DNA of 64,000 nt from an uncultured Gammaproteobacteria bacterium (GTDB taxonomy: Bacteria; Patescibacteriota; Patescibacteriia; UBA9934): the NCBI GenBank assembly GCA_964452565.1, contig CAYVLY010000001.1, positions 451,053-515,052 on the forward strand, written 5' to 3'. The notes under the pieces are model-generated. The model was not told the DNA's origin. It worked only from the letters and a program-made list of their open reading frames with translations, and ran no database searches. Positions 1,172 to 58,001 of this stretch are shown here, piece by piece. The position numbers and the translations under genes were made by a program. Each line of letters starts with the position of its first letter. Position 1 is the stretch's first letter.

Positions 1172-1615
1172 TTATGCCTCTATTTTACCACCAACTGCCA
1201 TTATTTTCTCTGCAGCAGTCTTTGAGACTGCACATTTCTTGATTGTGACAGCTTTTGTAATCTCACCGTTTGCAAGGATCTTTACGTCCTTTGTGGCACT
1301 TCTAATAAGTCCCTTGCTGTGTAATGTCTTTGGTGTTACTACTTCTTTTGCAATATACTTCGCCTCCAAATCGCTTAACCGAACAATCTGTGCATCAGGA
1401 TTTGGTGACTTAAAACCACGCAACTTTGGAGTTGATAGGATTAGTCGGCGCATTCCACGTCGTTTGTGTCCAGAACTTCCTGATCGAGACTTTTGTCCCT
1501 TCATTCCACGTCCAACAGTATGTCCACCTTTGGTAGATCCATATCCGCGACCAACGCGTCGTCTTGATTTTTGTGTACCCTTGTTTGCTTTAAGGGTGTG
1601 CATTGAAAGTGTCAT
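1172..1615 (-). CDS. rplO: 50S ribosomal protein L15
   Basis: 147 aa with a basic G/R-rich N-terminus (KGTQKSRRRVGRGYGSTKGGHTVGRGMKGQKSR) typical of L15, sitting between rpsE and secY. Confidence 0.9.
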   Translation of the reverse strand: MTLSMHTLKANKGTQKSRRRVGRGYGSTKGGHTVGRGMKGQKSRSGSSGHKRRGMRRLILSTPKLRGFKSPNPDAQIVRLSDLEAKYIAKEVVTPKTLHSKGLIRSATKDVKILANGEITKAVTIKKCAVSKTAAEKIMAVGGKIEA

Positions 1616-1620
1616 ACTAT

Positions 1621-2385
1621 TTATTTATCAGCCTTTTTGGGTCCCTCGGCTCCTCGCGCAAGCGCTCGGTCGCTCGGGATGACGGCTTCTGGAATACTAT
1701 TATCCGCAACCGTCACTTTCTTGGATACCTTCTTGGCTTCAGGCTTTTTCTTTGCAGGCCCCTTCACTTCAGGCTTCTGTGTCTTCTGATCTGTTTTCTG
1801 CTTTCTGCTTTCTGCCTTCTTCTGCTCCTTCTTCTCTTCTTCAACGGCCTTTAGCTGCCCAAGCGCAGCAAATGCTGCCTTGGCGTTATTGATTTTATTG
1901 TTTGTTCCAAGAATCTTTGAAACTGCGTTTGGAACTCCAGCCAAAGAAAGAACCATGCGAACAGCACCACCAGACTTAAGTCCAGTTCCCTTTGGAGCAG
2001 GCTTAATGATCACTTTTGCTGCACCAAATTTTGCTTTAACTTCGTATGGGATGGTCTCCTTTGACATTGGAACAGTAATGACGTTCTTCTTTGCCTGTCG
2101 ATATGCCTTTTCAATCGAAATCTGAACGTCAGCTCCCTTTGCAACTCCAACTCCTACGCGACCTTTTCGGTCACCAATTAGAAGACACGTTCGGAAACGC
2201 ATTCGCTTTCCACCCTTTGTCACACGTGTAACGCGTGAGAGCTCTAGAATCTTCTGCTCAAACTCACGTTGCTCACGCTTTTGAAAACGCTTACGACGTC
2301 GTGGCTTTCGAGCACCATGCTTTGCTCCTGGTTTCTTTGTATTCTGTTGATTCATCATAGGATTAGAATTCAAGTCCATTCTCAC
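1621..2385 (-). CDS. rpsE: 30S ribosomal protein S5 with a roughly 85-aa Lys/Glu-rich C-terminal extension; the start may be the internal Met near 2358
   Basis: The core TKGGKRMRFRTCLLIGDRKGRVGVGVAKGADVQISIEKA...GTGLKSGGAVRMVLSLAGVP matches the S5 dsRBD and S5 C-terminal domains. The tail AVEEEKKEQKKAESRKQKTDQKT... is low complexity. rplO follows directly with no rpmD between them. Confidence 0.9.
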   Translation of the reverse strand: MRMDLNSNPMMNQQNTKKPGAKHGARKPRRRKRFQKREQREFEQKILELSRVTRVTKGGKRMRFRTCLLIGDRKGRVGVGVAKGADVQISIEKAYRQAKKNVITVPMSKETIPYEVKAKFGAAKVIIKPAPKGTGLKSGGAVRMVLSLAGVPNAVSKILGTNNKINNAKAAFAALGQLKAVEEEKKEQKKAESRKQKTDQKTQKPEVKGPAKKKPEAKKVSKKVTVADNSIPEAVIPSDRALARGAEGPKKADK

Positions 2386-12240: not shown

Positions 12241-12355
12241 ATGTGCCAATGTTATCTTACTGGGACAAAAAAGCAAGAGTTTATATCATCATAAAAATCA
12301 TCCAGAAAAATTGACGCCCCCCGTGGGAGTTCCCAGGGAGGGCGTACAAACCGGG

Positions 12356-12598
12356 TCAGGCGATCGGTGGAGGTGTTCCGCTAGCAAGCATGGCTGAGAG
12401 CTCTGCAAGAGCTACCATATCACACATGCCACGAGGCAACTCCCAGGCATTTGGCTTTTTCCGATTCCTGTATCTTTTCCTATACAGACCCGTGGGGAGG
12501 CCAGGACAGTAGACTGGGGGCGGAATCCGAACCCCAAGCGGTGCCAAGCCGCCGGCACCGAAACTCACTTCGCGTATACACTGAACATCTACTTGCAT
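12356..12598 (-). CDS. Small basic protein (80 aa), paralog A of a two-member family in this window; conserved motif FGAGGLAPLGVRIPPPVYCP
   Basis: An AGGAG Shine-Dalgarno motif sits 6 nt before the ATG. The region is GC-rich (about 60%). The gene shares a 15-codon block with 46759..46989 in which 9 of 10 differing codons are synonymous. A GC hairpin plus T-run follows the stop at about 12300-12340. Confidence 0.55.
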   Translation of the reverse strand: MQVDVQCIREVSFGAGGLAPLGVRIPPPVYCPGLPTGLYRKRYRNRKKPNAWELPRGMCDMVALAELSAMLASGTPPPIA

Positions 12599-12912
12599 GA
12601 CAATCTCCTGTTATAGTGATTGTCCGTAAAAGCCCAAAGCTACGCGGACGCACCTGTTGTGGAGACACTCGCGTGTCCCGCACCCCTTACTCAACGCACT
12701 TTGCTGGTTTTCCACGCCAGCACCGCCTTACCGCCCGTTCCACCAGTACAGCACGGCGGCTTAGTGCACCCACTTTTACCCGGCAACGATATTCATTCTA
12801 TAGGCTCGCGTGCAATTTAAAAAATACATGTGTGGAAAACTAATAAAAAGTAAAGCACTCCGCATACGAGCGGAGCGCCGAGAGACAAGTCAGAGGAATA
12901 GCTTATGACCTG

Positions 12913-13500
12913 TTACCTACCCTTCCGGGCTAGTACCGCAACCACAAGGTGGAAGAGTGCCAGGTAGGCAGGGTTGAAGATACTAACAAAGTCACCGTTG
13001 TACGACAGTGTGGCATTCAGAAGCGTCACCAGACATGCCACTGTCCAAACCCACCACGAAAGCGGCTCATCTTTAGTTGGATCCTTGTACACATCCTTGA
13101 GCGTGGGATGAAATGAGATCACAACCGTGAGCATCATGATGAGATTCGCGGTACTGGCATCCCTGTAGTACCAGTACACCACAAACGAAAGAACGCATAG
13201 AACGAGAACAAAGATCTCGACAGAGTCAGGCCACTTGAACTTCTTCCAGCGCAAGGCCAGGATGAATGTCACTGTTGCGGCAAAACTCCCTACGATGTAC
13301 TGAAGCGCCAGAGGAAAACTCGTCACTTCAGTGAAGGTCACGGCGTTAATCGTAGCCGCAATCATCCAAATGAACCACGTAACGAACTTGGGCTTGGAGC
13401 TTCCTCTCTTCGTCTGGATGTTATAGAGGACGTAGCCGGTGGCGTGGATCAACGCCGCAGGCACACCGAGAACCCATTCAAGAAGCTGATCTTCTTGCAT
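12913..13500 (-). CDS. Hypothetical integral membrane protein with about 6 transmembrane helices; start taken at MQEDQLLEW
   Basis: Hydrophobic helices (FIWMIAATINAVTF, LALQYIVGSFAATVTFILAL, IFVLVLCVLSFVVYWYY, LIMMLTVVISF, WWVWTVACLVTLL). It lies in the insert between fusA and tuf. Confidence 0.55.
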   Translation of the reverse strand: MQEDQLLEWVLGVPAALIHATGYVLYNIQTKRGSSKPKFVTWFIWMIAATINAVTFTEVTSFPLALQYIVGSFAATVTFILALRWKKFKWPDSVEIFVLVLCVLSFVVYWYYRDASTANLIMMLTVVISFHPTLKDVYKDPTKDEPLSWWVWTVACLVTLLNATLSYNGDFVSIFNPAYLALFHLVVAVLARKGR

Positions 13501-13586
13501 TGTAACTCCCCGTACCTGGAATATTAACTCGATCCGCACCATGCGAACTTGTTAAATAACTTAACAAACCCACAAATACAGGTCAA

Positions 13587-16938: not shown

Positions 16939-17415
16939 TTGCTCGAAACCTGGAACCTCTTCCGTACCGCCTGGTTACTGTATACACAGAGACGAAAGCG
17001 GCAAAAGCTCATCAAGAAGGGCTACAGGATCCCTCCTGCTCTGGCTGCAACTGACCTGATGAATCTCATCCAGTCCCCCTACGTCAACAACGACGTCGTA
17101 GTATCTATGTGGGAGATCTTCCACGAGGTGTGGTGCTACGAAGATGACTTCTACGCTGCTCGCGAGAAGGTCGTAAATGCTATGCGTGAGCACCGCCCCG
17201 GGTTGTTCAGGGCCATCCGACAGCGTGACGAACAACGGATGATGGCTGAGATGCTCCAGGACTTCGCAATGTTCTTCACGGCCATGGGACTCATGCCACC
17301 CGTCGTCGAAACTCACATGTTCGAGGTTCGCATGATCGTGCCCTCTCCTAACTGCGACGAATGCGGAGATCGCCACTCCTGCGGCCTGCGCCCTCGTGGC
17401 TGCGGAGAGGAATAG
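16939..17415 (+). CDS. Hypothetical protein in a GC-rich cassette, 158 aa with a TTG start and a Cys-rich C-terminus (CDECGDRHSCGLRPRGCGEE)
   Basis: The ORF has its own promoter and Shine-Dalgarno motif. Its composition is clearly more GC-rich than the flanking rpsL and S2P genes. No family was recognised. Confidence 0.5.
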   Translation: MLETWNLFRTAWLLYTQRRKRQKLIKKGYRIPPALAATDLMNLIQSPYVNNDVVVSMWEIFHEVWCYEDDFYAAREKVVNAMREHRPGLFRAIRQRDEQRMMAEMLQDFAMFFTAMGLMPPVVETHMFEVRMIVPSPNCDECGDRHSCGLRPRGCGEE

Positions 17416-19448: not shown

Positions 19449-19518
19449 AGTTGAAGTTCGATATTTGATATGTATAGGGTGTCATATTTGAGCGGGAAAA
19501 TCAATGCTTGTGACACAA

Positions 19519-19790
19519 CAAAAAAACTTCCAAATTTGGAAGTGTTATTGCAGCTCCGGACGGTAGGACGAATTAGTCCTCTGCCACATGTGGGCTAAAC
19601 GATTTCAGGTGGCGCACAAGTGAGCCGGAGCCCAGTTGAACGGTCCCGAATCGCAGAGAACCGCTGGATCCCCGCATGCGCGCACTGCTTCATTGTGCGA
19701 ACAGCTAGACTGCGTAATCTCGCAGATGGTTCTTTCGAATCAGTGGATCCTTTCTTGTTGTAATTGGCTAATTACGTTCTACCGTCTTGA
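19519..19790 (-). ncRNA. Candidate roughly 270-nt non-coding transcript between ndk and murA, identity unknown
   Basis: On the minus strand a promoter reads TTGCAA (19823-19828), 18-nt spacer, TAATAT (19799-19804). An intrinsic terminator follows: the perfect palindrome cttccaaatttggaag (19527-19542) plus a T-run. The only ORF in between is a weak 32-aa one. Confidence 0.3.
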
Positions 19791-19883
19791 AGCTATTTAT
19801 ATTATCGCAAAGTTGGTGGTTTTTGCAAAGAAAAACAGGTGAATTCATCCACCCGTTATCCATAGTTTTTCCACATTTGTTAT

Positions 19884-20441: not shown

Positions 20442-20984
20442 CTACAGTTCAGAAGCAAGAAAAACCCTGAACCAATTATCAGATTTGAATCTTGAAGAAA
20501 ACAACCTAGCCACATAGTCACTAATATTTTTCGAACAGCACCATACACTTCGATGCATCTGCTTAAAGCCTAATCGCTTCAATATGTGCCTAACCTGATT
20601 ACGTAGTCGTTTGTGATCCTCAGGTATATCAAATGAGATCAAACAAATCTGGCCACCTGGTAGATTATTTGCGTTCATTGAGAGCTGCGCCATATATTCC
20701 TCGAACCCTGCCTTAGAAAATGATGTTAAATACCCGTCAGCTATCTTTTTTCTATCGATTAATCTTCTTTTCTCTAACCTCCTAAATTCCTGTCTCCTTA
20801 GTTTAGCCTCTTTTCTGTCTAAGAACTCTCTTGCGCCCTCTATACCAAATCTAACCACCAACCCCGGCCTAGAAAGACCAAAGTGAACATCTTCAATAGC
20901 TTGCCCGATATCAACAAGTATTCTCGCTGTTCTAGAATGAGGTTGAAGAGGCCTTACAGCTTCATTAATTAAACGATCGTTCAT
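20442..20984 (-). CDS. Hypothetical protein whose C-terminal roughly 85 aa resemble the Cas2/VapD fold; the N-terminal roughly 95 aa are a basic helical extension (possibly a PaaX-like regulator family)
   Basis: The C-terminal half ICLISFDIPEDHKRLRNQVRHILKRLGFKQMHRSVWCC...DNWFRVFLASEL follows the Cas2 pattern (beta1-YD[IV], RRR-KV-K-L, G-R-Q-SV[FW]EC, R[IV][FY]-L). No cas1 gene or CRISPR array is in the window. Confidence 0.5.
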   Translation of the reverse strand: MNDRLINEAVRPLQPHSRTARILVDIGQAIEDVHFGLSRPGLVVRFGIEGAREFLDRKEAKLRRQEFRRLEKRRLIDRKKIADGYLTSFSKAGFEEYMAQLSMNANNLPGGQICLISFDIPEDHKRLRNQVRHILKRLGFKQMHRSVWCCSKNISDYVARLFSSRFKSDNWFRVFLASEL

Positions 20985-24865: not shown

Positions 24866-27800
24866 CTAAACAACGAAGTTGATTAGCCTACCTGGAACAT
24901 AAACTACTTTCTTTACATCGTCCTTGATGTGCTTTGTAACATTCTCATCAGCTTTTGCTAGGTCTTCGACTTCATCCTGAATTGCATCTGGCGCTGCCTG
25001 GACCTCACCACGAAGTTTGCCGTTTACTTGAACTGCAATATTTACAAGCTCATCGACCACAAGCTCCTGATCATACTCAGGCCACTCGCCTTCTTCGAGC
25101 ATCTTCTTTTCACCAAGCTGCTCAGCAAGTTCATTTGCAAGATGTGGCGCAAATGGGCACAAAATCTGTAAGAACCTCTGGAATGTATCTTTTGTAATCG
25201 TATCTGATGCTTGGCACTGATTAACAAATGTCATCATCTGCGCAACTGCAGTGTTGAACCTCATGGTTTCAATATCTTCTGTGACCTTTTTGATCGTCTT
25301 ATGAAGTGCACGTGTAACAAATTCTGGCTCCTTATCTCCAGTCAACTCAGCCAATCGAACTACCCTATCCAAGAATCGCCGAACTCCAACTGATCCATTT
25401 GTATTCCATGGCACAGGCTCTTCAAACGGCCCCATGAACATTTCATAAACACGAAGCGTATCAGCACCATACTTTTCTACAATCTCGTCCGGATTTATTA
25501 CATTGCCCTTGGACTTTGACATCTTGTGACCATCCTCAGCCAAGATCAAACCATGCGAAGTACGCTTTTCATATGGCTCGCTAGTTGGAGCTGCGTCAAT
25601 GTCAAACAAAAACTTATTCCAGAATCGTGAATATAAAAGATGTAGTGTTGTATGCTCCATTCCACCGTTATACCAAGTCACTGGTCCCCAATAATTTAAC
25701 GGGTGGCTCATGTAATCTTTCAGGAACTGAACTTTTTCGTCATCCTCCTTGCCTTCACGAGTCTCTGGGAATGTCTCATGCAAAAAATTATAGTGATGCA
25801 GCATGTACTTTGGAGATAGTGTTTGGAATGACTCACCCCAAAGGAACCCACGCTCAGATAACTCTAAATCTGGCTTATGTAAAATCTGTTGCCTAATCTC
25901 AGGTGGCAAACTCTTATCTCGCAGATGAGTGTAGATATCACCTCCAAGGTGATACGCAGGAACCAACTCAACCATCATTCCGTCCTTTTCAATCCTATTC
26001 CATCCTCGATCTTCTTCATGGACCACAAATCCATCACCACGCAGAATCTCAAGTGCCTTATCAAAGTTTTCTCCAAGAATAAAAAGATCAAGATCGTGCA
26101 TGTGACGCCACAACTCCTTATTAAGTCCATTAATCATTAGTGACCCTGACGCCCAGAGCATAATGTTGTGCTCTGCAAGCAGAGCCTTCATATGCTTGAA
26201 CAAATCAAATAGCTTATGATCTAATTCGTCGGGTTGGATTTCAGCTCGCTTCCATTTATTCACGCCAAACATCTCATTACTCTGCGGTGCAGCATAGCGC
26301 ATAAAGTACCAACTTGATCCTGCCCAGTTTGGCATCACATCAGTTTCACGCCGCGCCGGCTTTCCACACTCAGGACAATCAACACTTACCCAATCTTCTA
26401 TGTTCGAAAGTGGACTCTCGCCGGTATCAGTTGGTTCATACTTATCTACTTCAGGAAGTGTAAGCGGCAATTGCTCCTCGCTCATTGGGAACCATCCGTC
26501 ACCATATCGACTCTTACTCTTACAATGCTCACAATGAACCATTGGAATTGGCTCACCCCAATAACGCTGACGAGAAAAAACCCAGTCACGCAACTTGTAC
26601 TGAACCTTTGATGCCCCAATGCCATAATCCTCAAGCCAATCTGTGATCTTTTTCTTTGCGTCTGCTGTTGAGAGGCCATTCAAGAAATCTGAGTTAATCG
26701 CAGTCCCTTCTCCAGAAAAGCAACAATCAGTCTCTTGAGATCCTTCGACTCCCTCTGGTCGCTCAGGATGACGGATTGCGGTATCCGCGACCGTCACTTC
26801 CACGACTTTTAATCCAAACTTCTGAGCAAACTCGTAGTCACGCTCATCGTGTGCCGGAACTGCCATTATTGCTCCAGTTCCATAGCCTGTCATGACATAA
26901 TCTGCGACCCAGATTGGAATCCTTTCATCTGTGAGCGGATTTAGAGCTTGCAATCCCTTAAGCTCAACTCCTGTCTTTTCTTTTGAAGCATCGCCACGCT
27001 CGAAATCTGATTTTGATGATGCATCTTTGACATATTCTCGAACCTCTTTGATATTTTCAATCTTATCTGAGTGCCTCTCAATCATCCCATGCTCTGGAGC
27101 AATTACCATGTAGGTTGCTCCAAACACAGTATCGGGTCGTGTTGTGAAAACTTCCAAATGATTCTTAGCATGCTCTGGACCATACTCTTCCTCAACAATG
27201 TCAGGGAGTGGGAACTTGATCATTGCCCCCTCTGATCTGCCGATCCAGTTCTTTTGCTGCAGTTTGACTGGTTCGATATAATCCAAAAACTTTAAATCTT
27301 TAATCAACCGATCAGCATACTGAGTAATCCGCAACATCCACTGTTCCTTGCTTCGTTTCTCAACTTCCCCACTACAACGTTCACATGCGCCATTTACAAC
27401 CTCCTCATTTGCAAGTCCAATCTTGCAGTTCAAACACCAGTTGATTGCGACCTTATCTTTGTAAGCAAGTCCGTTTTTGAAAAGCTGCAAAAAGATCCAC
27501 TGCGTCCATTTGTAATACTCGGGATCTGTCGTATTGATCTCGCGCGACCAATCAAAACTAAAACCAAGTGACTGAAGTTGTCTTCGAAATGTATCAGTAT
27601 TTTCTTTTGTAACATCTTGCGGCTTACGACCAGTCTTAATGGCATAGTTCTCTGTTGGAAGACCAAACGCATCCCATCCAATCGGATATAAGACATTGCG
27701 ACCCTCCATGCGCTTTTTGCGCGCGATAATGTCTAGCGCTGTGTAGCTCCTGGGATGACCAATGTGCAGTCCGGCACCTGATGGATATGGAAACTCGATC

Positions 27801-27907: not shown

Positions 27908-28064
27908 AGTGCATCTAGTTTATCGAAATCCGCTGAAAATGGGAAATACATATCAAGGTTAAGCCCCCGAGGTTCAACCTTGGATGCAAATCCTGCCAAA
28001 CAAAGGCTTTGACAAACCGACCTTAGTACGGCAATGTATAGCCATCCCTTTCAAACCCCTGCCC

Positions 28065-28580
28065 ATGGAGCAAAGCATGCAACATGCACAACGACCCAGT
28101 ATCTCAACCATGATCCTCGTGTCGCTCTTCGTGGTGAGCCTCGCAGTCCTTATGAGGCCCAACGACACCGAGGTAATCGAGAACGCTAGTGACGTGATGG
28201 TCGGGCCGACAGAAGAAGAACACGAGTTCGCCCACACGATCGTCGACAACAACTGCGACGGCCTCAACTGCTTCGCGTACATCGCCAGTCCGCAGGACAC
28301 GGACGATGAACTCTACGACGCAGGCTCTGATCGCGGCCGGTTCGTGCGCCTCATCACCCCACAGGGAGATGATCTCGCATTCGACATCCGCTACGGTGAC
28401 ATCTTCGTAGCGATCGACATCCTGCACTGCCGGGTCGACTCGAACTGCGGTGTGAGACCAATGCAATTCAATGAGGGGTTCGGTCTCATCTTCTACGACG
28501 CGCCCCGAGGAGATCACAAGCAGACCATGCACCCAAACGATCTGCGCTTCAGCCTAGCACCCAAAAAGGAGACGCCATGA
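28065..28580 (+). CDS. Hypothetical secreted or membrane-anchored protein in a GC-rich island; the start is uncertain (28065 or 28104) and the protein contains an HEFAH motif
   Basis: An N-terminal hydrophobic segment MILVSLFVVSLAVLM, 6 Cys, and about 60% GC. The track ORF begins at 27984. Confidence 0.45.
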   Translation: MEQSMQHAQRPSISTMILVSLFVVSLAVLMRPNDTEVIENASDVMVGPTEEEHEFAHTIVDNNCDGLNCFAYIASPQDTDDELYDAGSDRGRFVRLITPQGDDLAFDIRYGDIFVAIDILHCRVDSNCGVRPMQFNEGFGLIFYDAPRGDHKQTMHPNDLRFSLAPKKETP

Positions 28581-29002
28581 ACACTCGACACCTCATCCTC
28601 CTGATCATGACCATGCTCTCTGGCTGCTGGTGGGCTCCTTCGGCCCAAGAGGTCGAGCTGATCCGTGCGATCGACGCAGCCGGCTGCGGCTACAACCACA
28701 AGAGATGCAAGATCTACATAGATCGCCGAGAAGAGAGTGATCCTACTGTCCACCTGGAGTACTTCCGCATTGTGAGCGCGGGGTCACTACGGGCAGGAGA
28801 AGATGTCGACAAGACTTTTGAGATAGCAAAGGGCAGGATCTTTCGCGCTCTTGAAGAACTTGACTGCACGAAAGATGGCCACTGTGGGGTCCGGGTATAC
28901 GTCGTGTGCTCGAACATCGTCTACGCCAAGGTTGCTCACCCCAAGAAACAGCCCATCAACATCAACACCGGCATCGATGCTGACATGCTCAAGGAGGAAT
29001 GA
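28577..29002 (+). CDS. Hypothetical lipoprotein (lipobox LSGC) in the same GC-rich island
   Basis: MNTRHLILLIMTMLSGCWW... is a signal peptide ending in a lipobox cysteine. The protein is 141 aa and about 58% GC. Confidence 0.5.
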   Translation: MNTRHLILLIMTMLSGCWWAPSAQEVELIRAIDAAGCGYNHKRCKIYIDRREESDPTVHLEYFRIVSAGSLRAGEDVDKTFEIAKGRIFRALEELDCTKDGHCGVRVYVVCSNIVYAKVAHPKKQPININTGIDADMLKEE

Positions 29003-29004
29003 TC

Positions 29005-29118
29005 ATGCGGAGGATATGGTTCAAGTTCTGGTTCCAGGTCAACTCGAACATGCCATTGATGATCGTCATCGCACTGATCATCGCAGCTGCCTGGCTCCTG
29101 CCCTATGGCAGCCACTAG
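29005..29118 (+). CDS. Possible 37-aa single-transmembrane small protein, MRRIWFKFWFQVNSNMPLMIVIALIIAAAWLLPYGSH
   Basis: An AAGGAGG motif sits 7 nt upstream of the ATG, and the start overlaps the stop of the preceding gene. The ORF is too short for the ORF track. Confidence 0.3.
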   Translation: MRRIWFKFWFQVNSNMPLMIVIALIIAAAWLLPYGSH

Positions 29119-29291
29119 GCGTTCAATATGCCTGTCTCGCCCGCCCGCGTCCCCACCAGGACGCGGCTTCTGCTTTTCACAGAACCCAGACGCCAGACTT
29201 CAGAACCCAGAAAGGATCTTATCTGTGTTCTGTGTTCTGCCCAAGCACAAGACCCCGACGCGCGGGACGGGGTCGATAGACGGTTGAAACG

Positions 29292-31148
29292 TTACTGAAC
29301 ATTGACCCTGTGGGGTCGCGGTCCGGATCCAGAGGAGAACTTGGAGCCTCCTGGATCCTGCGGCGTTGCTGTGATTCGGTAGTCGATGCCGTTGGAGAAC
29401 GTATCATCCCACGATATCGTAGCCTGGTAGGCGCCACCACGCGTGGCAAGCGGTTTGGACTTGTATGCACCCGAGTTTGTCGGACGATAGTAGACCACCA
29501 CCTTGTAGCTGCCTTCTGGGTGCACGCGCGCCTTGACCATGAAATCCTGGCCGATAGTGAGCGAACTCACTGGCACGTGCTGGATCCCAGGCTCGATGGT
29601 TGGCTCAGGCTCAGGTGCGGCGACCATAGCCTCAGGTTCAGGTTCGACCGTCACCTCGGGCTCGATCAGCACTTCTGGCTCAGGGATCTCAATGACTGGC
29701 TCAGGCTCAGGGGCCTTGGCAACCGAATCAGGTTCGATCGGATCGGGCACCGGAACGACTTCAGGCTCAGGCTCGATCACCACTTCAGGTTCGATCTGTA
29801 CCAATGCTTCGAGCTCGACAACCTTGGCTGCCTCAGGGCTGGGACCATGGGTTTCGATCTGTACCTCAGGCTCGGGCTCGGGAACTACGATCGGTTCTGG
29901 GTCCGACATGCCGGCCAGTTCGACCACAGGCTCCGATGCAGTAGCCTCTGGCGTCGCATCACCATCACCGAAGAGGACCATCCCCGCAACACAGAGCAAG
30001 ACCACTAGCCCAATGATTGCCACTGGGATGGGCCACCTGCTCCTGCGAGGTGTCGGTACATCGTCAGACAGACTATCGCCGGGCAGAACCGTGTGACCAC
30101 CTGGATCAAACGTTGTGCCAGCACTTCGGAGACCATCCAGATCTTGATCACCACTGACTGCATGCCCGTAACGTTCCTCAGGAACTTCGAGCTCCTCAGG
30201 AACCATTGTGCCGCCAGGCGGGACGACGCTCTGTGGCTCAGCCTCTACGGCCTCAGGCACACTAGCAAGCGCTTCATCAGGCTCGGACTCTGGTTCGACC
30301 ACCACCTCAGGTTCGGGCGGATCGTCAGGAAGCTCGTCGTAGATCGCACGAAGCGCATCGATCATCTCTTGCGCGCTCTGAAAGCGATCTTTGCGATTGT
30401 ACTTCGTTGCTTGCTCGATAAGCCCACGGAACACCTCAGGCACACTATTGAGCATATCAAGATCAAGCTCGCACGATTGAAGGTCTGGAGGAACTTCTAC
30501 CCCAACCAGCATGCAGTACAGCGTTGCGCCAACAGCGAAGATGTCAGAACGCAGATCTACGGAAGATCCATCACTCTTCTGCTCTGGCGACATGAAGCCA
30601 AACGTTCCCATCGGGGTACCGATCTTGGTAAGGCCTGTATCTTCGAGCTCCATCTGAACGATGCCGAAGTCAGTGACCTTCACCGCACCATCCTCAGTGA
30701 AAAGGATGTTCGCGGGCTTAATGTCACGGTGTACCATACCACGACCATGTGCGAGAGACAGTGCTCTGAGAACTGCAATACACACGCTAGCAGACCACTT
30801 CTGGCCTAGCGAACCGCGTTGATGAATCCTGTTAAGCAACGAGCCACCGGTGATGAATTCCATAACAATGAACTGCTTATCGCCACCATCACCATTACCG
30901 AATACGTCGTAGACAGATACGATGTGGTGGTGCCTAAGCCTTGCCATCGCCTTAGCTTCACGTACAAATCGCTCGCGAATCATCGGCCTATGAGACAGAT
31001 TGGGCAGCAACATCTTGATAGCAACTTCTGCATCCAGAGCGGTATTAGTCGCCCTGTACACCACTGCCATACCCCCCTCACCAATGATGGAGCCCAACTC
31101 ATACTTACCATCCGCAAGGAAGCGGTCTGGCGTTTTTTTCGAAGTCAT
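29292..31148 (-). CDS. Hanks-type Ser/Thr protein kinase with one transmembrane helix, a Pro/Glu-rich (PEPE repeat) extracytoplasmic linker and a roughly 90-aa C-terminal domain
   Basis: Kinase subdomains are present: GEGGMAVVYRA, VAIK, HRDIKPANIL, DFG and SPEQ. The transmembrane helix is WPIPVAIIGLVVLLCVAGMVLFG. The gene is about 62% GC, and AAGGAG sits 6 nt before the ATG. Confidence 0.85.
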   Translation of the reverse strand: MTSKKTPDRFLADGKYELGSIIGEGGMAVVYRATNTALDAEVAIKMLLPNLSHRPMIRERFVREAKAMARLRHHHIVSVYDVFGNGDGGDKQFIVMEFITGGSLLNRIHQRGSLGQKWSASVCIAVLRALSLAHGRGMVHRDIKPANILFTEDGAVKVTDFGIVQMELEDTGLTKIGTPMGTFGFMSPEQKSDGSSVDLRSDIFAVGATLYCMLVGVEVPPDLQSCELDLDMLNSVPEVFRGLIEQATKYNRKDRFQSAQEMIDALRAIYDELPDDPPEPEVVVEPESEPDEALASVPEAVEAEPQSVVPPGGTMVPEELEVPEERYGHAVSGDQDLDGLRSAGTTFDPGGHTVLPGDSLSDDVPTPRRSRWPIPVAIIGLVVLLCVAGMVLFGDGDATPEATASEPVVELAGMSDPEPIVVPEPEPEVQIETHGPSPEAAKVVELEALVQIEPEVVIEPEPEVVPVPDPIEPDSVAKAPEPEPVIEIPEPEVLIEPEVTVEPEPEAMVAAPEPEPTIEPGIQHVPVSSLTIGQDFMVKARVHPEGSYKVVVYYRPTNSGAYKSKPLATRGGAYQATISWDDTFSNGIDYRITATPQDPGGSKFSSGSGPRPHRVNVQ

Positions 31149-31219
31149 GCACCTCTCCTTGTCGAATGTGCAAAAGAACGCTCCTCACCTGACCCTGTGT
31201 CAGATTTGGAGAAGATGGG

Positions 31220-31248
31220 ACTATACTTAAAATAGCAGAAATAATCAA
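31220..31248 (-). promoter_or_regulatory. sigma70-like promoter for the kinase gene: TTGATT, 17-nt spacer, TATAGT
   Basis: Read on the minus strand upstream of the strong Shine-Dalgarno motif (AAGGAG) and ATG at 31148. Confidence 0.45.
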
Positions 31249-31272
31249 GAATCGCACCCCTGGATGCGATTC
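31249..31272 (-). terminator. Intrinsic terminator after gdhA: stem GAATCGCA / TGCGATTC followed by a T-rich tract
   Basis: An 8-bp perfect stem with the loop cccctgga, then ttgattatttctgctatttt on the minus strand. Confidence 0.55.
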
Positions 31273-31290
31273 TCTGAATAATTATGTTAT

Positions 31291-33962: not shown

Positions 33963-34210
33963 AGTTTTATTTTATGAATCGGCAAAAAGTATTTTACCAT
34001 ATTCGAATTTTCTGACAATAAAAATGAAGACACCCGGCCGCGAGGGGTCGGGTGTCAACGGATGCGCCGAGCTCGGCGCAACATGTGGCAGTAGAGACTC
34101 ACAAGATCAGCCCTGCCAAGCTGACCAAGATGATCTGGCCCATCGGTGCCATCGAAGACGATCACTCGCCCTCAGCACTCGTGGACCAACTCGTCGGCGC
34201 CGTCGCAGGC

Positions 34211-34336
34211 TCAGGTCTGCATGTAGTGGCGCAGGCGGCGGTCGACGTCGGCCTCGATGTCCTTGGCAGCGAAGGATTCGGCATAGCAGCGCGATGACAG
34301 GCGGGCGAGGGCGAAGGTGCGCGGGGGATCGTTCAT
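34211..34336 (-). CDS. Possible 41-aa small ORF (MNDPPRTFALARLSSRCYAESFAAKDIEADVDRRLRHYMQT) inside a 66% GC island
   Basis: It is the only frame in 34000-34450 that reads like a protein. The overlapping longer ORFs on both strands are Arg/Gly-rich and are treated as GC artefacts. Confidence 0.2.
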   Translation of the reverse strand: MNDPPRTFALARLSSRCYAESFAAKDIEADVDRRLRHYMQT

Positions 34337-34504
34337 GGTTCGTTGGCTCCTGGATGAGTTTCACCGAAGCAGACTCTGACTATTCTGCTACCACGGTTTC
34401 GAAACGCTTGCGCGCTCCGCACAGGCTGCCCTAGGCAGGCTTCCTGTGGTCAGGAGCCAAAATGTAACAAAAACAACCAGGTCTGTCAACCCCTTTTGCA
34501 TAAA

Positions 34505-34533
34505 TTGACACATTGCTGATTATCCTTTAATTT
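34505..34533 (+). promoter_or_regulatory. sigma70-like promoter: TTGACA, 17-nt spacer, TAATTT
   Basis: ttgaca cattgctgattatcctt taattt, about 45 nt upstream of 34578. Confidence 0.5.
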
Positions 34534-34577
34534 AAATATATCCATCCTCTAAAACACTCAGACCAAAGGAACGCCCA

Positions 34578-35069
34578 ATGTCTGGCTACAATCCCCAAGA
34601 TACACTCGAAGGAATGCTGCTCGCACTTCTCCACACCATGAAAAAAAACGCAGACCACTTGGCTGCATCACACTCTAATAGGGCCCAAGAGGCCAGAACA
34701 GAAATGCTACGTGTTCACGAGCAAATGTCCGACAGGCTCACTGCCCTACCAGGCACTGGTGTCTGGATGGGAAGGGAACGAATTCGGCTGATAGAAACAC
34801 TTGTCAGCGCTGCTGACAAACTCCATCATGGAGCAACCCAGATACAGATCAGGGAACAGGTCCAGACATGCTTCAGCTTCTTTGATGCTATCTGCACCCA
34901 GATATCCGATAACGGTGTTCGAGCCAAGCAATTCTGCCGACAACCGCTGGGGCTCATCGCTGAGCTAGTGATGCGAATCGACAGTGGCGAACACCAAAAC
35001 AACGATCTTCACCGATGGCTTGACCAGGAGATCGCTAAATTGCGCCAGGCTGCACTACACAGTGAATAG
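34578..35069 (+). CDS. Hypothetical helical protein (163 aa)
   Basis: An ORF with a promoter, a Shine-Dalgarno motif (AAAGGA) and a downstream bidirectional terminator. No family was recognised. Confidence 0.5.
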   Translation: MSGYNPQDTLEGMLLALLHTMKKNADHLAASHSNRAQEARTEMLRVHEQMSDRLTALPGTGVWMGRERIRLIETLVSAADKLHHGATQIQIREQVQTCFSFFDAICTQISDNGVRAKQFCRQPLGLIAELVMRIDSGEHQNNDLHRWLDQEIAKLRQAALHSE

Positions 35070-37258: not shown

Positions 37259-37440
37259 GGCGCAAGAATACGAAAATTAGGGAAAAATGTCAATCGACGG
37301 TCGCAATTGGTGTTGTTCCAGAGACCGTCGTCCTGAGCGACCGAGCGTTTACGCGAGGAGTGAAGGATCTCCAAAAACAAAGAACCCCCACTGCCGCAAG
37401 GACCGAGGGGGTCCAATGCGGGCGGGGGTGAGGTGGGTAG

Positions 37441-37941
37441 CTAGTCCCAGGCGGGATCGGGCTGGCCATCCGGGACGGTGAGGGTCATGCAGGCGGCCTC
37501 GAACGAACCCTCGGGGTACACAGGCTTGCTTGAGGGTTCGAGCTGGTCCTCGTGCTCACCATCGAGCCAGGCGTTCACGTCCGCATCCGAGTCCTCAAGG
37601 TCGGGGGTGAAGTCGGCCAGATTGTGCTCGAACTGCTCCGCGAAGCTTTCCACCTGGTAGAGGATGCCGAGCATATCCATCTCGACCTCAGCCACAGGCG
37701 TGCACAGAACGCAGAGGTGGATGTCACCATCCTCCCTGAAGCGGCGGAAGACCTTGTAGGCCGGGCCGATCGAGACACTCGGGTTCTGCACGTACTGGCC
37801 CACCTGGATCTGGCCGAGCGTATCCACGGTAACACCATCGTACACATCCCGTCCGAAGCGCCAGGCGTGCACGACCTCCGCATCAGACTCCTCGCTCGCA
37901 CGCAGCTCCACGATCACATTCTCGAACTTACGGATAGCCAT
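37441..37941 (-). CDS. Hypothetical acidic protein in a GC-rich cassette (166 aa)
   Basis: About 60% GC. It is driven by the conserved promoter-leader module at 38035-38103 shared with 60653..60982. Confidence 0.5.
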   Translation of the reverse strand: MAIRKFENVIVELRASEESDAEVVHAWRFGRDVYDGVTVDTLGQIQVGQYVQNPSVSIGPAYKVFRRFREDGDIHLCVLCTPVAEVEMDMLGILYQVESFAEQFEHNLADFTPDLEDSDADVNAWLDGEHEDQLEPSSKPVYPEGSFEAACMTLTVPDGQPDPAWD

Positions 37942-38034
37942 GGTAGGCTCCTCTTAGCTAGGGTGGAAGTATTGGGAAAGGGGGATCTGATAACGATGTT
38001 CGCTATTCAAACCTCCTTTTCCCAAACATACCTA

Positions 38035-38103
38035 TTTCAAATGAACGGCTAAGAATAGCACAAAAAAGGCCTTTTGTCAAGCCTTTTTGCTAATTTTAGC
38101 CTT
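38035..38103 (-). repeat. Copy A of a roughly 68-nt conserved promoter-leader module: on the minus strand TTGACA, 17-nt spacer, TATTCT, followed by a conserved +1 region GTTCATTTGAAATAGGTATGTT
   Basis: About 85% identical to 61085-61152. The -35 is at 38075-38080 and the -10 at 38052-38057 (minus strand). Confidence 0.6.
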
Positions 38104-41777: not shown

Positions 41778-42233
41778 CTATGGCTCCAGATGCGTGGTGG
41801 TGTCTCGAAACTCTGCCCTACAACTTCTCTTGGCCCTCCTGTTTGCCCGTCTGATCTGGTGCAGCGGCCAATCCGGGTCCTCCAACCTTACGTAGGTGTA
41901 ATTCACCTCTGGCAGCCCTGGCCACAGATTGCACCACTCCAACCACCCAGCCAGATGGAGGTCTTGTCTTTCAATATAGAAATCTACTCGATTCCTTCCA
42001 GAATCCGGAGTGTCGTCAAGTCGGATGGTATAGCCCTCATATATGAACACTACCGTATCCTTTCTTTCAGACGTACCGTGCCACCTGTAGTCAACGTGTT
42101 CCACGTAGCTCGAGCCAGGCACTGAGAAATGTATGCTCATTGGCATGACCGTGTTGTCACCCTCAGCAGAGACGGTCGGGGAAAGCAGAAGGATGTAACA
42201 GGAAATGAAGAGGGAGAGGAGACGACGAGGCAT
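41778..42233 (-). CDS. Hypothetical secreted protein (signal peptide MPRRLLSLFISCYILLLSPTVSA) in a moderately GC-rich cassette
   Basis: AAAGGGG lies 7 nt before the ATG at 42233. The gene is about 55% GC. The track ORF begins further upstream at 42284. Confidence 0.45.
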   Translation of the reverse strand: MPRRLLSLFISCYILLLSPTVSAEGDNTVMPMSIHFSVPGSSYVEHVDYRWHGTSERKDTVVFIYEGYTIRLDDTPDSGRNRVDFYIERQDLHLAGWLEWCNLWPGLPEVNYTYVRLEDPDWPLHQIRRANRRAKRSCRAEFRDTTTHLEP

Positions 42234-42374
42234 GGTAACGCCCCTTTCATGTTCGAACACATCACAAGTGAGGCTGATCCTCATTCGCGACTAAATAAAG
42301 GTAACAGGAAAATCGGCTTATGTAAATCGTTACAGCACAAACTCCGCCGCGTTCTCGGAACGGGCGGAGTTAGG

Positions 42375-46654: not shown

Positions 46655-46758
46655 AACTTGAGTATAACAGACTAGCCTGAATTGGGTGAGATGTCAAGAA
46701 ATGCAAACCGCCTCCCATGAGGAGCATCCTCATTGGAAGGCGTGCAAGAAAGGCCGGG

Positions 46759-46989
46759 TCAGGCCACAGATATTACCCCAGATGGGACAACAACGAACAC
46801 GGTGCCAAGTCGCAAGATCCTGACTTTGCGTCGTCGCTTATAGCCCCTCCTGGGCTGTGGTCTTCTGTCACTGTAAGAGTCCCAGGCCGTGTGGCCATAA
46901 GTGGGACAGCTCATTGGTGGTGGGATTTGCACCCCAAGTGGTGCCAGACCTCCGGCGCCACAGTACTTCAGTGTTGCGAGTTGCGGCAT
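46759..46989 (-). CDS. Small basic protein (76 aa), paralog B of the GAGGLAPLGV-motif family
   Basis: GGAG sits 6 nt before the ATG and the gene is GC-rich. The protein MPQLATLKYCGAGGLAPLGVQIPPPMSCP... shares its core with 12356..12598 through synonymous changes. The conserved 3' end ctgacccgg includes the stop codon. Confidence 0.55.
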   Translation of the reverse strand: MPQLATLKYCGAGGLAPLGVQIPPPMSCPTYGHTAWDSYSDRRPQPRRGYKRRRKVRILRLGTVFVVVPSGVISVA

Positions 46990-47185
46990 TTTAGACTCCT
47001 TTGGGTTAGAAGTCCGAAATCGCTGACTCGGCGTTTTACCCCTTGTGTTTTAATTCCAGCATCTCTGCTAGAATCTGACCCGGTAACACTATCCATTATA
47101 TCGATGTATCTTGAACTCATAAAATAGATGTGTGGGTAGAAAAATGAAAAACAAAAAAACCTTAGGCAAAAACCTAGGGCTTTTT

Positions 47186-49305: not shown

Positions 49306-49761
49306 CTACGCCGAAGCACACATAGCGGAACGACGCGGACGGCTCGGGAGGCGCGGATGCATACCACGGCGGGCACCAACCGACTCATTGACCTCAGGCT
49401 CATCACCATTGCGACCGAAGCGAACCTTCAGATGCAAACGCAGACTCCTTGCTTGCCTGGGCAGCAAATCACGTACGGCCAAACGAATCTCTTCTTCGAG
49501 CTCCTCGCTGCCACCCCCTCCCTTGCCGCACCCGACGACCCAGTGGCCATGATTCTGGTGCAGAACAATGACTGGATCTTGATCCCTGCTGGTTTGAGGT
49601 TCAACCCTGATCTCGAAGTTGTCCTCGAACTCGGTGATCCCATCGAACAGGTCGATATGCCTTTTCAGGACACCGGCGACTGTACCCAGAACAGCGCATA
49701 CGTGTTTGGGCTTGGTACTGCCGTACTGTCTGAAGGTGAGTGTGAAAAGCTTTGTAGTCAA
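49306..49761 (-). CDS. Hypothetical protein in a GC-rich cassette (151 aa) with a TTG start preceded by AAGGAG
   Basis: A candidate promoter TTGACC, 17-nt spacer, TATTCT lies upstream at about 49850-49880 (minus strand). The gene is about 58% GC. The overlapping plus-strand ORF 49357..49839 is judged antisense. Confidence 0.45.
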   Translation of the reverse strand: MTTKLFTLTFRQYGSTKPKHVCAVLGTVAGVLKRHIDLFDGITEFEDNFEIRVEPQTSRDQDPVIVLHQNHGHWVVGCGKGGGGSEELEEEIRLAVRDLLPRQARSLRLHLKVRFGRNGDEPEVNESVGARRGMHPRLPSRPRRSAMCASA

Positions 49762-49890
49762 AGTGACTGTCTCCTTCTGCTCTCATCTGCTTGGTTTTTG
49801 TCACACACGCGTTCCGAACCGTTCAATACGCGCCTGTGAGAATAACCAAAAACCCTAAATAGGTCAAGTAGGGCTTATTGGGCTCATCAC

Positions 49891-55010: not shown

Positions 55011-55970
55011 CTATGCGGTCAGCCGACCTGAGCGGATGAGGTGTAGGAGCTGAAACCCTCGCTCACCAAGCAAGACGCCGCTGAGGTGCGGTAGTGCCCG
55101 TTCCAGATCTGATCCCTGCCGGCTGGCGTCATGCAGCCTAGCTTCGAGACGATCGCGACCATCTCCGAGCCTAGCAAGCGTCTTGGCTACATTGGGCACC
55201 AGCAGGAAGCTCGTACCAGCTGCCCGGAAAAGTCCCAGGTCAGTCTTGGGCGAATCACCAACACTAAGTACGCGCGGCAAAGGAATCTGCTGCTTTTGCG
55301 CCCAAAAAGCGAGCACATCCCCCTTGTTGAAGTCATGGACAACCGTTCTTGGCCAATAGCCAGAAATTTCATCGAGCCCATTCCAACTCAAGGACAACGC
55401 TCGTATGCTAAGCCGCCGATAATCTTCTGGCGTGAAAAAATGCCATGCCCACATTTCTATCGCATCCAAAAGCCCGTAGGAGGCAAACATGACCGGTTCT
55501 TCTGATGCATCCTGAGTAAGGAACGTCCTGAGGAATGTCTCAAGACCCAGACGGGGTGTGAAATCTTTGACAAGTTGCTGGAAGCTGATCTTGTCTACCT
55601 TGGCTGCAGCCAGACGGTCGACCGTGCGGAAGATCCAGTCCTCGAGCGCCTCCGGGCTATCGAACTCGCCGGCCAGATACTGACGCAGTTCGGCCAGATC
55701 AGCGTCCATGTCGACCTTGCTCATCAAGGCGCGAGTAGCGCCGAACGTCTGACCAGCATGAACCGTGCCGTCGAAGTCCAAGGCAGCGCCCTCGGCCTGC
55801 CTGACTCGCTCAAGCACCTGCTCAACCTCGGATCTCTCGAGATTCACAGCCAGAATATCTTCTTCCGGCCCAGCCCGCCCCATGAGATGGCGCAGCTCAT
55901 TGATACCTCTGAAACCAACAACCCGGAACGTATGACCATCATCCGTTTGAAAGGACATCCTGACCTCCAT
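55011..55970 (-). CDS. HAD-superfamily hydrolase-like protein in a GC-rich cassette
   Basis: ALDFDGTVH matches HAD motif I (DxDGT) and LSVGDSPKTDLG resembles motif IV. The gene is about 62% GC. Confidence 0.55.
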   Translation of the reverse strand: MEVRMSFQTDDGHTFRVVGFRGINELRHLMGRAGPEEDILAVNLERSEVEQVLERVRQAEGAALDFDGTVHAGQTFGATRALMSKVDMDADLAELRQYLAGEFDSPEALEDWIFRTVDRLAAAKVDKISFQQLVKDFTPRLGLETFLRTFLTQDASEEPVMFASYGLLDAIEMWAWHFFTPEDYRRLSIRALSLSWNGLDEISGYWPRTVVHDFNKGDVLAFWAQKQQIPLPRVLSVGDSPKTDLGLFRAAGTSFLLVPNVAKTLARLGDGRDRLEARLHDASRQGSDLERALPHLSGVLLGERGFQLLHLIRSGRLTA

Positions 55971-57649: not shown

Positions 57650-57678
57650 TTGACAGGGAGTTGTTTTTCTGCTATCTT
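57650..57678 (+). promoter_or_regulatory. sigma70-like promoter: TTGACA, 17-nt spacer, TATCTT
   Basis: Upstream of 57717; AAAGGGA lies 7 nt before the ATG. Confidence 0.5.
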
Positions 57679-57716
57679 GCGACCTTGCCATCACTCCAAC
57701 ATGAAAGGGAACCGTC

Positions 57717-58001
57717 ATGGCAATGACCCGAAGCCCCATAGTCTTTCACTTGACCGTGCGGGTTACAGCAAGGCAACAGCAAGCAATCCGTACCGGACCT
57801 CCCCTCTGCGTCTCCCTGAAGAAGATCGTTCGTGTCGAGCGCATCAGGCACATCGACTACGAATTCGAGATCGAGCTCAGGTTCGAATTCGATGAACGCC
57901 TCGACGACGCACCCATGGTCTTCTTCACCCTCATGTCTATCCTCAGCACGGATGGCATGCCGTTTGAAGTCATCCGTATCACTGACGGAACCTCGGGCTG
58001 A
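57717..58001 (+). CDS. Hypothetical small protein (94 aa) in a GC-rich cassette
   Basis: It has its own promoter and Shine-Dalgarno motif. The overlapping antisense ORF 57672..58082 is judged spurious. Confidence 0.35.
   Translation: MAMTRSPIVFHLTVRVTARQQQAIRTGPPLCVSLKKIVRVERIRHIDYEFEIELRFEFDERLDDAPMVFFTLMSILSTDGMPFEVIRITDGTSG

Follow-up and report, generated by a model that had tools for sequence, protein, structure and literature searches.

A GC-rich locus between leuS and gdhA in a bacterium of candidate phyla radiation type, with four-cysteine membrane proteins and a receptor-type Ser/Thr kinase

We describe here a block of four genes located between leuS and gdhA on contig CAYVLY010000001.1 (assembly GCA_964452565.1), within a stretch of 64,000 nt that was analysed as a whole and is hereafter called the window. 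Three small open reading frames of the plus strand (ORF1, ORF2 and ORF3) form an operon that converges on the gene of a putative transmembrane Ser/Thr kinase (Table 1). A first-pass annotation, made from the letters of the window and its reading frames, had singled out this block as a GC-rich surface-signalling module acquired horizontally by a reduced genome resembling those of the candidate phyla radiation (CPR). Our analysis retains most of the gene-level description and leads to a different view of the origin of the locus.

Genes, signals and composition of the block

The evidence supports the assignment of the 618-aa protein to bitopic receptor-type kinases of the Hanks family, with predicted activity and topology. 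Its N-terminal part matches the Pfam family PF00069 over aa 16-260 (146.6 bits for a cut-off of 31.7) and contains the motifs GEGGMA (aa 23-28), VAIK with K45, E64, HRDIKPAN (aa 140-147), DFG (aa 160-162), SPE (aa 187-189), D202 and R255. These catalytic residues are invariant in the alignment with three relatives from other genomes (P0002, P0006 and P0008), with the exception of the Asp of DFG, which is a Tyr in P0006. The solved structures nearest to the kinase domain are those of StkP and PknB (about 1e-42). The transmembrane Hanks-type kinase announced by the first-pass annotation is thus confirmed by the Pfam match, by the presence of all catalytic motifs and by a single transmembrane helix. 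We also tried the protein as a PASTA kinase (PknB/StkP/PrkC) and rejected this assignment, since no PASTA repeat (PF03793) was matched and the NCBIfam model NF033483 (PknB_PASTA_kin) scored 255.5 bits for a cut-off of 450, with only aa 12-325 aligned.

The predicted extracytoplasmic part comprises a stalk and a terminal domain. The stalk is indeed rich in Glu, Pro and Val as first described; the clean PEPEPEV repeat array is not there, and the coding DNA shows degenerate direct repeats of 27-48 nt typical of low complexity. The C-terminal sensor-like domain, originally estimated at about 90 aa, corresponds to a predicted immunoglobulin (Ig)-like beta sandwich of about 98 aa. Its AlphaFold2 (AF2) model, computed from a seven-sequence alignment, has eight strands and a mean predicted local distance difference test (pLDDT) value of 90.3; the best match in the PDB is the Ig-like domain of the peptidylarginine deiminase (PPAD) from Porphyromonas gingivalis (E 6e-6), followed by immunoglobulin V domains. 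Pfam contains no family for this ectodomain and gives only sub-threshold hints of Big_3_5 and PKD. In our searches it was found in only about eight proteins: besides the window kinase, homologous ectodomains occur in P0002, P0006, P0008, three fragments and the kinase of the close relative L099 discussed below.

In the operon, each stop codon overlaps or abuts the following start, ORF2 beginning within the ATGA that ends ORF1, and the three genes appear from the sequence to be translationally coupled. The ORF1 start at 28,077 (167 aa) was also chosen by independent gene calling, and an alternative start at 27,984 (198 aa) is less likely. The region upstream of ORF1 should contain the promoter of the operon; within it, positions 28,006-28,053 weakly resemble the stretch located 5' of the ORF1-family gene of L099 (73% over 49 nt, E 0.075). 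The N-terminus of ORF2, MNTRHLILLIMTMLSGC, carries L-S-G-C at aa 14-17 and fits the lipobox pattern [LVI][ASTVI][GAS]C, in agreement with the lipoprotein first proposed. ORF3 likewise corresponds to the announced 37-aa transmembrane peptide with one hydrophobic helix, and its GC content at the three codon positions (0.39, 0.37 and 0.84) shows a coding-like periodicity.

ORF1 is paralogous to ORF2 (31% identity over 94 aa); their four Cys align with one another and are invariant across the alignment of the whole family. Both are predicted to be membrane-tethered extracytoplasmic proteins, one signal-anchored and the other a lipoprotein, and they define a small new family. The AF2 model of ORF1 has a confident alpha/beta core (pLDDT above 90), for which neither the PDB, searched with Foldseek, nor the viral structures of BFVD gave a significant match; ORF1 has no match in Pfam, NCBIfam or PADLOC. 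An HEFAH sequence had been noticed in ORF1, where it does occur. It is, however, not a conserved feature: the corresponding residues are IEFAY, VEFVR, SVFAQ, IELAS, EEFAQ, VDFAH or VELAH in the homologues and VELIR in ORF2. A zincin (HExxH) metalloprotease was therefore rejected, and no peptidase family matched either.

The two transcription units end on either side of a short repeat region, in which the heptamers CAGAACC and TCTGTGT form an imperfect inverted repeat between two convergent terminators; the interval 29,119-29,291 folds with z-scores of -4.3 (plus strand) and -3.6 (minus strand). Upstream of the kinase, the strong Shine-Dalgarno motif described previously is present. The sigma-70-type promoter site also exists as a consensus match, but it carries no statistical weight because shuffled sequences average 2.3 such sites for the one found here.

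The block (27,984-31,148) has a GC content of 55.8%, compared with 45.2% for the remainder of the window. In windows of 300 nt, GC rises from 0.43-0.46 to 0.58-0.60 across about 28,050-30,450 and then remains at 0.50-0.53 until about 31,200; the intergenic region on the gdhA side (31,149-31,290) has 42% GC. The GC-rich island of the first-pass annotation is therefore real, with flanks less AT-rich than the roughly 40% GC it quoted (44% for leuS and 47% for gdhA). The tetranucleotide comparison that it recommended points the same way: positions 28,001-31,200 are the most deviant of 153 sliding windows of 3.2 kb (distance 0.034 for a median of 0.015 and a standard deviation of 0.0033, i.e. 5.8 standard deviations). 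Most of the contrast lies at third codon positions, whose GC content (GC3) is 0.73 in ORF1, 0.68 in ORF2, 0.84 in ORF3 and 0.57 in the kinase gene, against 0.40-0.42 in leuS, gdhA and trxB. The compositional island is confirmed.

Table 1. Features of the leuS-gdhA block, GC3-rich stretches elsewhere in the window, and content of the slot in related genomes (window positions)
Feature	Position	Strand	Description
Divergent leuS/ORF1 intergenic region	27908..28076	.	46% GC
ORF1	28077..28580	+	167 aa; GGAG Shine-Dalgarno; predicted signal-anchor helix, then four-Cys extracytoplasmic domain
ORF2	28577..29002	+	141 aa; predicted lipoprotein; AAGGAG Shine-Dalgarno; lipobox LSGC, Cys17
ORF3	29005..29118	+	37 aa; one hydrophobic helix; AGGAGG 7 nt upstream
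Terminator-like hairpin 3' of ORF3	29145..29166	+	8-bp stem, 7 GC pairs, T-rich tail
Heptamer repeats, convergent intergenic region	29180..29239	.	CAGAACC, 4.7 copies; TCTGTGT, 2.6 copies
Terminator-like hairpin 3' of kinase stop	29252..29268	-	
Kinase gene	29292..31148	-	618 aa; convergent with the ORF1-ORF2-ORF3 operon
Kinase aa 521-618	29295..29588	-	predicted Ig-like beta-sandwich ectodomain (about 98 aa)
Kinase aa 396-520	29589..29963	-	predicted extracytoplasmic stalk (125 aa); 24% E, 22% P, 15% V
Kinase aa 373-395	29964..30032	-	single predicted transmembrane helix, RRSRW on the cytoplasmic side (hydrophobicity scan)
Kinase aa 271-372	30033..30338	-	predicted cytoplasmic juxtamembrane linker; acidic, Pro-rich (composition and alignment)
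Kinase aa 1-270	30339..31148	-	Hanks-type Ser/Thr catalytic domain (Pfam PF00069, E 1.2e-42)
Shine-Dalgarno AAGGAG	31155..31160	-	6 nt 5' of the kinase ATG
Sigma-70-like match TTGATT-17-TATAGT	31220..31248	-	upstream of the kinase; consensus match only
gdhA terminator hairpin	31247..31274	-	12-bp stem and T tail; right-hand edge of host-like sequence
GC3-rich ORFan gene or stretch	12913-13542		
GC3-rich ORFan gene or stretch	16939-17415		
GC3-rich ORFan gene or stretch	34024-35069		
GC3-rich ORFan gene or stretch	37287-38052		
GC3-rich ORFan gene or stretch	41778-42284		
GC3-rich ORFan gene or stretch	49357-49839		
GC3-rich ORFan gene or stretch	55011-55970		
GC3-rich ORFan gene or stretch	57672-58562		
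GC3-rich ORFan gene or stretch	60653-60982		
Relatives L088-91 and L102 (Rifle groundwater)	leuS-gdhA slot		two four-Cys paralogues
Relatives L092-95 (GCA_022012805.1, GCA_018895575.1, GCA_018896835.1)	leuS-gdhA slot		two four-Cys paralogues
Relative L096	leuS-gdhA slot		one four-Cys gene
Relatives L100, L101 and L103	leuS-gdhA slot		two four-Cys genes
Relative L099 (Logan SRR13131472)	leuS-gdhA slot		order leuS, 575-aa kinase, one four-Cys gene, gdhA

The slot in related genomes and the maintained GC excess

Several features support a CPR-like (Patescibacteria-like) host, as first proposed. The whole contig measures 709,517 bp, and the gene of ribosomal protein S5 directly abuts that of L15, with no L30 gene between them (window 1172-2385); the lack of L30 is a known CPR trait. 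Among species-representative genomes, the four LeuS loci closest to that of the window include a metagenome-assembled genome (MAG) of Magasanikiibacteriota and one of the 'Patescibacteria group'; another of the four, with the same gene order, comes from a MAG of 36% GC labelled Gammaproteobacteria, presumably in error. The gene order of the window is shared by the Magasanikiibacteriota MAG (L009) and by L008, a more distant syntenic relative in which gdhA abuts leuS with nothing between them.

The four-Cys family proved to be highly restricted. A word-indexed search of 5.8 billion proteins with ORF1 and ORF2 retrieved only these two proteins; six more members (E 3e-21 to 1e-11) came to light when 1.84 billion representatives were searched exhaustively with HMMER. 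Metagenomes were then scanned with an alignment of the five closer sequences as query. Every member with readable context sits between divergent leuS and gdhA, in the gene order of the window and in genomes whose core proteins are about 60-86% identical to those of the window. The family was thus found only in this CPR clade and, as far as the sequences tell, always at the leuS-gdhA site. Five other relatives carry it in the slot, and in four of these no kinase accompanies it there. This speaks against the initial view of the four genes as a single acquired module. With the same genes found at this place in related CPR genomes, the locus appears to be an old feature of the lineage rather than a recent import. 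A counterpart of ORF3 is absent from the relatives read; in L092, gdhA lies only about 133 bp from the last four-Cys gene.

The neighbourhood of the slot shows further variation. The LeuS protein of the window (1013 aa) contains an insert of about 215 aa at aa ~545-760 (window 25628-26275) that weakly resembles the NTP_transf_5 nucleotidyltransferases (E 7e-6, below the cut-off). The LeuS of L092 (5699-9013, 1104 aa) has NUDIX and Ser_hydrolase matches instead, and that of L009 has no insert, so that LeuS seems to accommodate varying domain inserts in this clade. The trxB-trx interval is another small variable slot of the syntenic region: in L092, trxB and trx are separated by genes for an additional thioredoxin and for a repressor resembling CsoR (Trns_repr_metal; 13018-13586), both missing from the window, and L008 lacks trxB.

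The high GC content of the four-Cys genes is not peculiar to the window. In all relatives the GC3 of the family is 0.56-0.79, for 0.28-0.54 in adjoining genes. At identical residues of gdhA, IF2 and trxB, only 33-41% of the four-fold sites are identical between the window and either L092 or L099; the four-fold sites of core genes are thus essentially saturated. Over such a span of time a foreign composition would have faded; the GC offset is nevertheless present in every lineage, which indicates a maintained excess and not the remnant of a recent transfer.

About a dozen other ORFans, scattered among the AT-richer housekeeping genes that make up most of the window, have GC3 values of 0.5-0.7 and are equally poorly adapted to the codon usage of housekeeping genes (Table 1). 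None of them matches Pfam or NCBIfam. Some of these stretches may be non-coding, for instance 34024-34434 and 37287-37481, which translate to Arg-rich low-complexity sequence. In the islet between trx and IF2, a GC3-rich ORFan is also present in L092 at the same position. The GC3 excess therefore marks an entire class of rapidly evolving, lineage-specific genes of these genomes. Its candidate causes are codon-usage selection, continual exchange within the clade and biased gene conversion. Because the GC3 excess recurs in at least six related genomes at orthologous sites, the locus provides a counter-example to the equation of atypical GC content with recent horizontal transfer, and composition-based island callers would misread the entire GC3-rich class. 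If the phenomenon is genome-wide, population data would allow a direct test of why GC content varies within CPR genomes.

Three GC-rich intergenic stretches of the window have marked folding potential: 46655-47150 on the minus strand (z -6.6), 19449-19883 (z -5.0 and -4.2) and 12290-12900 (z -3.5). They may correspond to unannotated structured RNAs. The stretch at 19.4-19.9 kb shows some conservation with L092, and no Rfam family was matched in the GC-rich non-coding-looking stretches, even at permissive thresholds.

The locus also has few of the attributes expected from a mobile island. Its composition is atypical, but it contains no integrase or transposase reading frame and no tRNA gene (the nearest tRNAs lie at 47.3 kb), and the search for flanking direct repeats or a target-site duplication at the borders yielded only a 13-nt match of 85% identity. 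The pattern of absence expected from a recent gain was not observed either. A phage or plasmid vector was rejected: no relatives of the locus were found in viral contigs, and plasmids gave only 78-nt matches to the kinase motifs of Streptomyces kinase genes.

Descent of the kinase and possible roles of the locus

The closest relative of the window by gdhA (86% identity), L099, carries a kinase in the same slot. The two proteins are collinear over their full length (41% identity, E 1e-115), and their kinase domains are sisters in the neighbour-joining tree (55% identity, 80% bootstrap). The L099 kinase has the same domain order and an Ig-like C-terminus ending in VxVQ, as in the window, and the GC3 of its gene is 0.77. 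Given its presence at this site in at least one further CPR relative, the kinase probably predates the split of these lineages. In L009, a soluble kinase-like protein is encoded directly 3' of leuS (about 12,480-13,400; frame of 299 aa without transmembrane helix), with 27% identity to the kinase domain of the window; Ser/Thr kinases are thus not unique to the lineage of the window and L099.

The CPR pair falls inside a clade of 12 members (72% bootstrap) that is otherwise non-CPR. The four non-CPR loci of this clade that we read have 69-73% GC, and in three of them a porin gene lies one gene away. P0002, P0006 and P0008, which share the Ig-like ectodomain, come from MAGs of 70-73% GC labelled Pseudomonadota. 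Ectodomains are diverse in the rest of the clade: P0012 and P0017 combine similar PE-rich stalks with different small beta domains, PEGA-like in both, and others again are found in P0027 and P0043. At the kinase loci L004, L006 and L007 of the high-GC MAGs (kinase from 10,001), the gene order is Polysacc_synt, Alg14-like, Alg13-like (Glyco_tran_28_C), kinase, a convergent 108-aa ORFan and Porin_O_P, which hints at a link of the kinase with envelope polysaccharide synthesis in these bacteria. The 108-aa convergent neighbour was considered as a homologue of ORF1/ORF2, and no similarity was found.

As the deeper relatives are high-GC receptor kinases that share the ectodomain and have porin genes nearby, these data suggest an ancient transfer, and not a recent actinobacterial one. 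The entry of the kinase into the CPR clade by such a transfer is plausible but unproven, both its direction and its age being deduced from sequence comparison. The horizontal acquisition initially proposed could plausibly hold in this older, inter-phylum form and for the kinase; as a recent event it is contradicted by the L099 kinase in the same slot and by the saturation of four-fold sites.

Taken together, these results make it likely that the block is a genuine leuS-gdhA accessory locus of a CPR bacterium, consisting of an old four-Cys operon and a receptor kinase, with a GC content that is maintained. Two layers can be distinguished in it. The first would be formed by the products of the operon, i.e. 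two membrane-tethered four-Cys paralogues and a 37-aa membrane peptide. The second would be the receptor kinase, with its catalytic domain in the cytoplasm, its transmembrane helix, an acidic stalk of sufficient length to span the envelope and the Ig-like domain at the tip. Binding of a ligand or contact with a surface at the ectodomain could induce dimerization of the kinase, as in enzymes of the PknB/StkP type, followed by autophosphorylation of Thr residues in the activation loop; the activated kinase would then phosphorylate cytoplasmic targets. Fully extended at about 0.3 nm per residue, the stalk could reach over tens of nm. It is possible that the kinase is functionally linked to the four-Cys proteins, since they are adjacent in both genomes that have the kinase. 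Four-Cys genes nevertheless persist where the interval contains no kinase, so that no such link is needed.

CPR bacteria are thought to possess very little signalling machinery, and the kinase is thus a concrete candidate for the way in which a CPR cell with a genome of about 0.7 Mb senses its surroundings or the surface of its host. A literature search on Ser/Thr kinases of CPR bacteria retrieved nothing. Receptor-type kinases are nevertheless a well-known kind of protein, and it is rather the maintained GC3-rich class and the four-Cys family that were less expected. One may speculate, tentatively and with the odds rather against it, that the GC3-rich class (GC3 about 0.2-0.35 above core genes) is distinct and actively maintained in conserved hot spots between housekeeping genes, and that the leuS-gdhA slot is then a contact-sensing cassette on the cell surface of an episymbiont, in which the four-Cys proteins act as co-receptors or present ligands to the Ig-like ectodomain. 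If so, a force specific to this class of genes would have to be at work, for example selection on the use of rare codons, continual exchange within the clade or, at hot spots of recombination, GC-biased gene conversion.

Several observations weigh against the accessory-locus interpretation. The kinase lies between leuS and the four-Cys gene in L099, but between the four-Cys genes and gdhA in the window. Common descent of the two arrangements therefore needs a rearrangement, failing which the kinase entered the slot twice, for example by transfer from one CPR bacterium to another; no remnants of a kinase or of the reading frames that would mark a move were seen in the intergenic regions of L099. 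As the relatives were read around the locus, the absence of a kinase refers to the interval and not to the genome. On the kinase domain alone, bootstrap support for joining the CPR kinases to the high-GC kinases with Ig-like ectodomains is 0%, so that the shared ectodomain is the sole evidence for this link, and the taxonomy of the high-GC MAGs is based on NCBI labels and on the nearby porin gene. Finally, neither a PP2C phosphatase nor an FHA protein turned up in the scanned proteins of the window, which covers 64 of about 709 kb.

Among the alternatives, the kinase with its ectodomain could have been born in, or be ancestral to, CPR bacteria and have moved from there to high-GC bacteria, or else the ectodomain only could be shared, through domain shuffling. 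The tree favours neither direction, as the CPR pair is not nested within the Ig-bearing trio, and a GC-rich composition is native to many ORFans of the CPR clade and maintained in them. However, the rest of the 12-member clade is non-CPR, with high GC at all four loci read and with diverse ectodomains, and the neighbourhood of the kinase is conserved in the high-GC genomes (Alg14, Alg13, kinase, 108-aa gene, porin), whereas in CPR bacteria the kinase is patchy and occurs at two positions. We regard this scenario as unlikely.

The main functional rival is a role in anti-phage defence, the kinase being similar to PD-T4-6 or Stk2 and the leuS-gdhA slot a small defence hot spot. PADLOC models of PD-T4-6 indeed match the protein (best E 5e-77, one of them across aa 9-489), and the kinase is patchy among close relatives, evolves rapidly (41% identity for 86% in gdhA) and sits in a variable slot. 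Yet these models are effectively generic detectors of Hanks kinases that also flag housekeeping PASTA kinases: they recognize the PASTA kinase of every Streptococcus thermophilus genome, for which the phage phenotype is very mild (PMC11514479). The kinase domain scores equally well against a PknB/StkP model, the adjacent genes have no PADLOC match, and a receptor topology with an extracytoplasmic Ig-like domain fits defence less well. A defence function hence seems improbable for this kinase.

Elsewhere in the window, a 180-aa protein resembling PaaX_M and Cas2 (20442-20984; E 1.9e-10 and 1.3e-5) is a conserved neighbour of ndk in the clade; the window shows neither a CRISPR array nor further cas genes.

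The original proposal, in which all four genes form one surface-signalling module recently received from a high-GC Gram-positive (actinobacterial) donor, has become very improbable. It could draw on the strongly atypical composition, on the lack of the island in the syntenic L008, on kinase-domain matches of 40% identity that include actinobacterial proteins such as P0004 of Solirubrobacterales, and on the fact that the sole plasmid DNA matches are to Streptomyces. Against it, ORF1, ORF2 and the kinase all find their best matches in the same Patescibacteria lineage and at similar GC, the kinase over its full length in the L099 kinase of the same slot, and the ORF1/ORF2 family is confined to the CPR clade, at the same site in the five other relatives. 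Synonymous sites are saturated between these genomes, and the kinase lacks a PASTA domain or any other actinobacterial hallmark. The non-CPR relatives that share its Ig-like domain point to MAGs labelled Pseudomonadota, near Porin_O_P, and not to Actinobacteria.

Least of all can the block be an assembly chimera, in which a GC-rich fragment of another organism was joined into a CPR contig, because both borders recur in independent assemblies. GC changes abruptly at both borders, and the three Logan contigs concerned all stop inside the island, within the heptamer/inverted repeat (29,181-29,209). The junction of gdhA with the kinase, including the exact kinase protein, was nevertheless recovered on contigs of two runs (SRR8146440 and SRR8146441) and that of leuS with ORF1 and ORF2 on a third contig, seen in two samples; the contig ends overlap by about 29 nt in the repeat, which looks like a break of the k-mer graph and not like a foreign junction. 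Homologous GC-rich genes at the same site in related genomes lead to the same conclusion.

Comparison with known systems

The window kinase is organized as PknB of Mycobacterium tuberculosis and StkP of Streptococcus pneumoniae, with an N-terminal cytoplasmic Hanks domain, a linker, a single transmembrane helix and an extracytoplasmic C-terminal sensor, and it presumably shares their mechanism of dimerization and activation-loop phosphorylation. It differs from them in that one Ig-like domain, carried on a stalk of 125 aa rich in Glu and Pro, takes the place of the PASTA repeats, and in that neither a PP2C phosphatase gene nor cell-division genes are adjacent.

The full architecture recurs in MDP2305496.1 (P0002), MDP2315343.1 (P0008) and P0006; compared with the window kinase, they show 34-36% identity along the whole protein and 45-47% when the kinase domain is taken by itself. 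Their ectodomains share with that of the window the positions H, G, YY(R/K), K, G-x-Y, D, G-x-x-Y-x-I-x-A and GS, but their stalks are rich in Pro, Ala and Val and their gene neighbourhoods are unrelated to that of the window. The L099 locus differs in another manner: the kinase and the four-Cys gene are head to head, instead of tail to tail as in the window, the stalk is less Glu-rich, and there is a single four-Cys gene and no ORF3.

The ectodomain model matches the Ig-like domain of PPAD (PDB 5ak7, 4ytb and 6i0x) with template-modelling scores of 0.77-0.80, a root-mean-square deviation of 2.4 A and 22-24% identity. PPAD is a secreted deiminase with a sorting domain of the type IX secretion system. 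Its protein context is unrelated to that of the kinase, and the match denotes a class of fold from which no ligand can be deduced.

Finally, the locus shares with classical genomic islands an atypical composition and codon usage, as well as its absence from a distant syntenic relative. Unlike them, it lacks an integrase, a transposase, a tRNA target and flanking repeats. Acquired genes are usually AT-rich, whereas this locus is richer in GC than its host, and its content is conserved at one and the same site across species whose synonymous positions are saturated.

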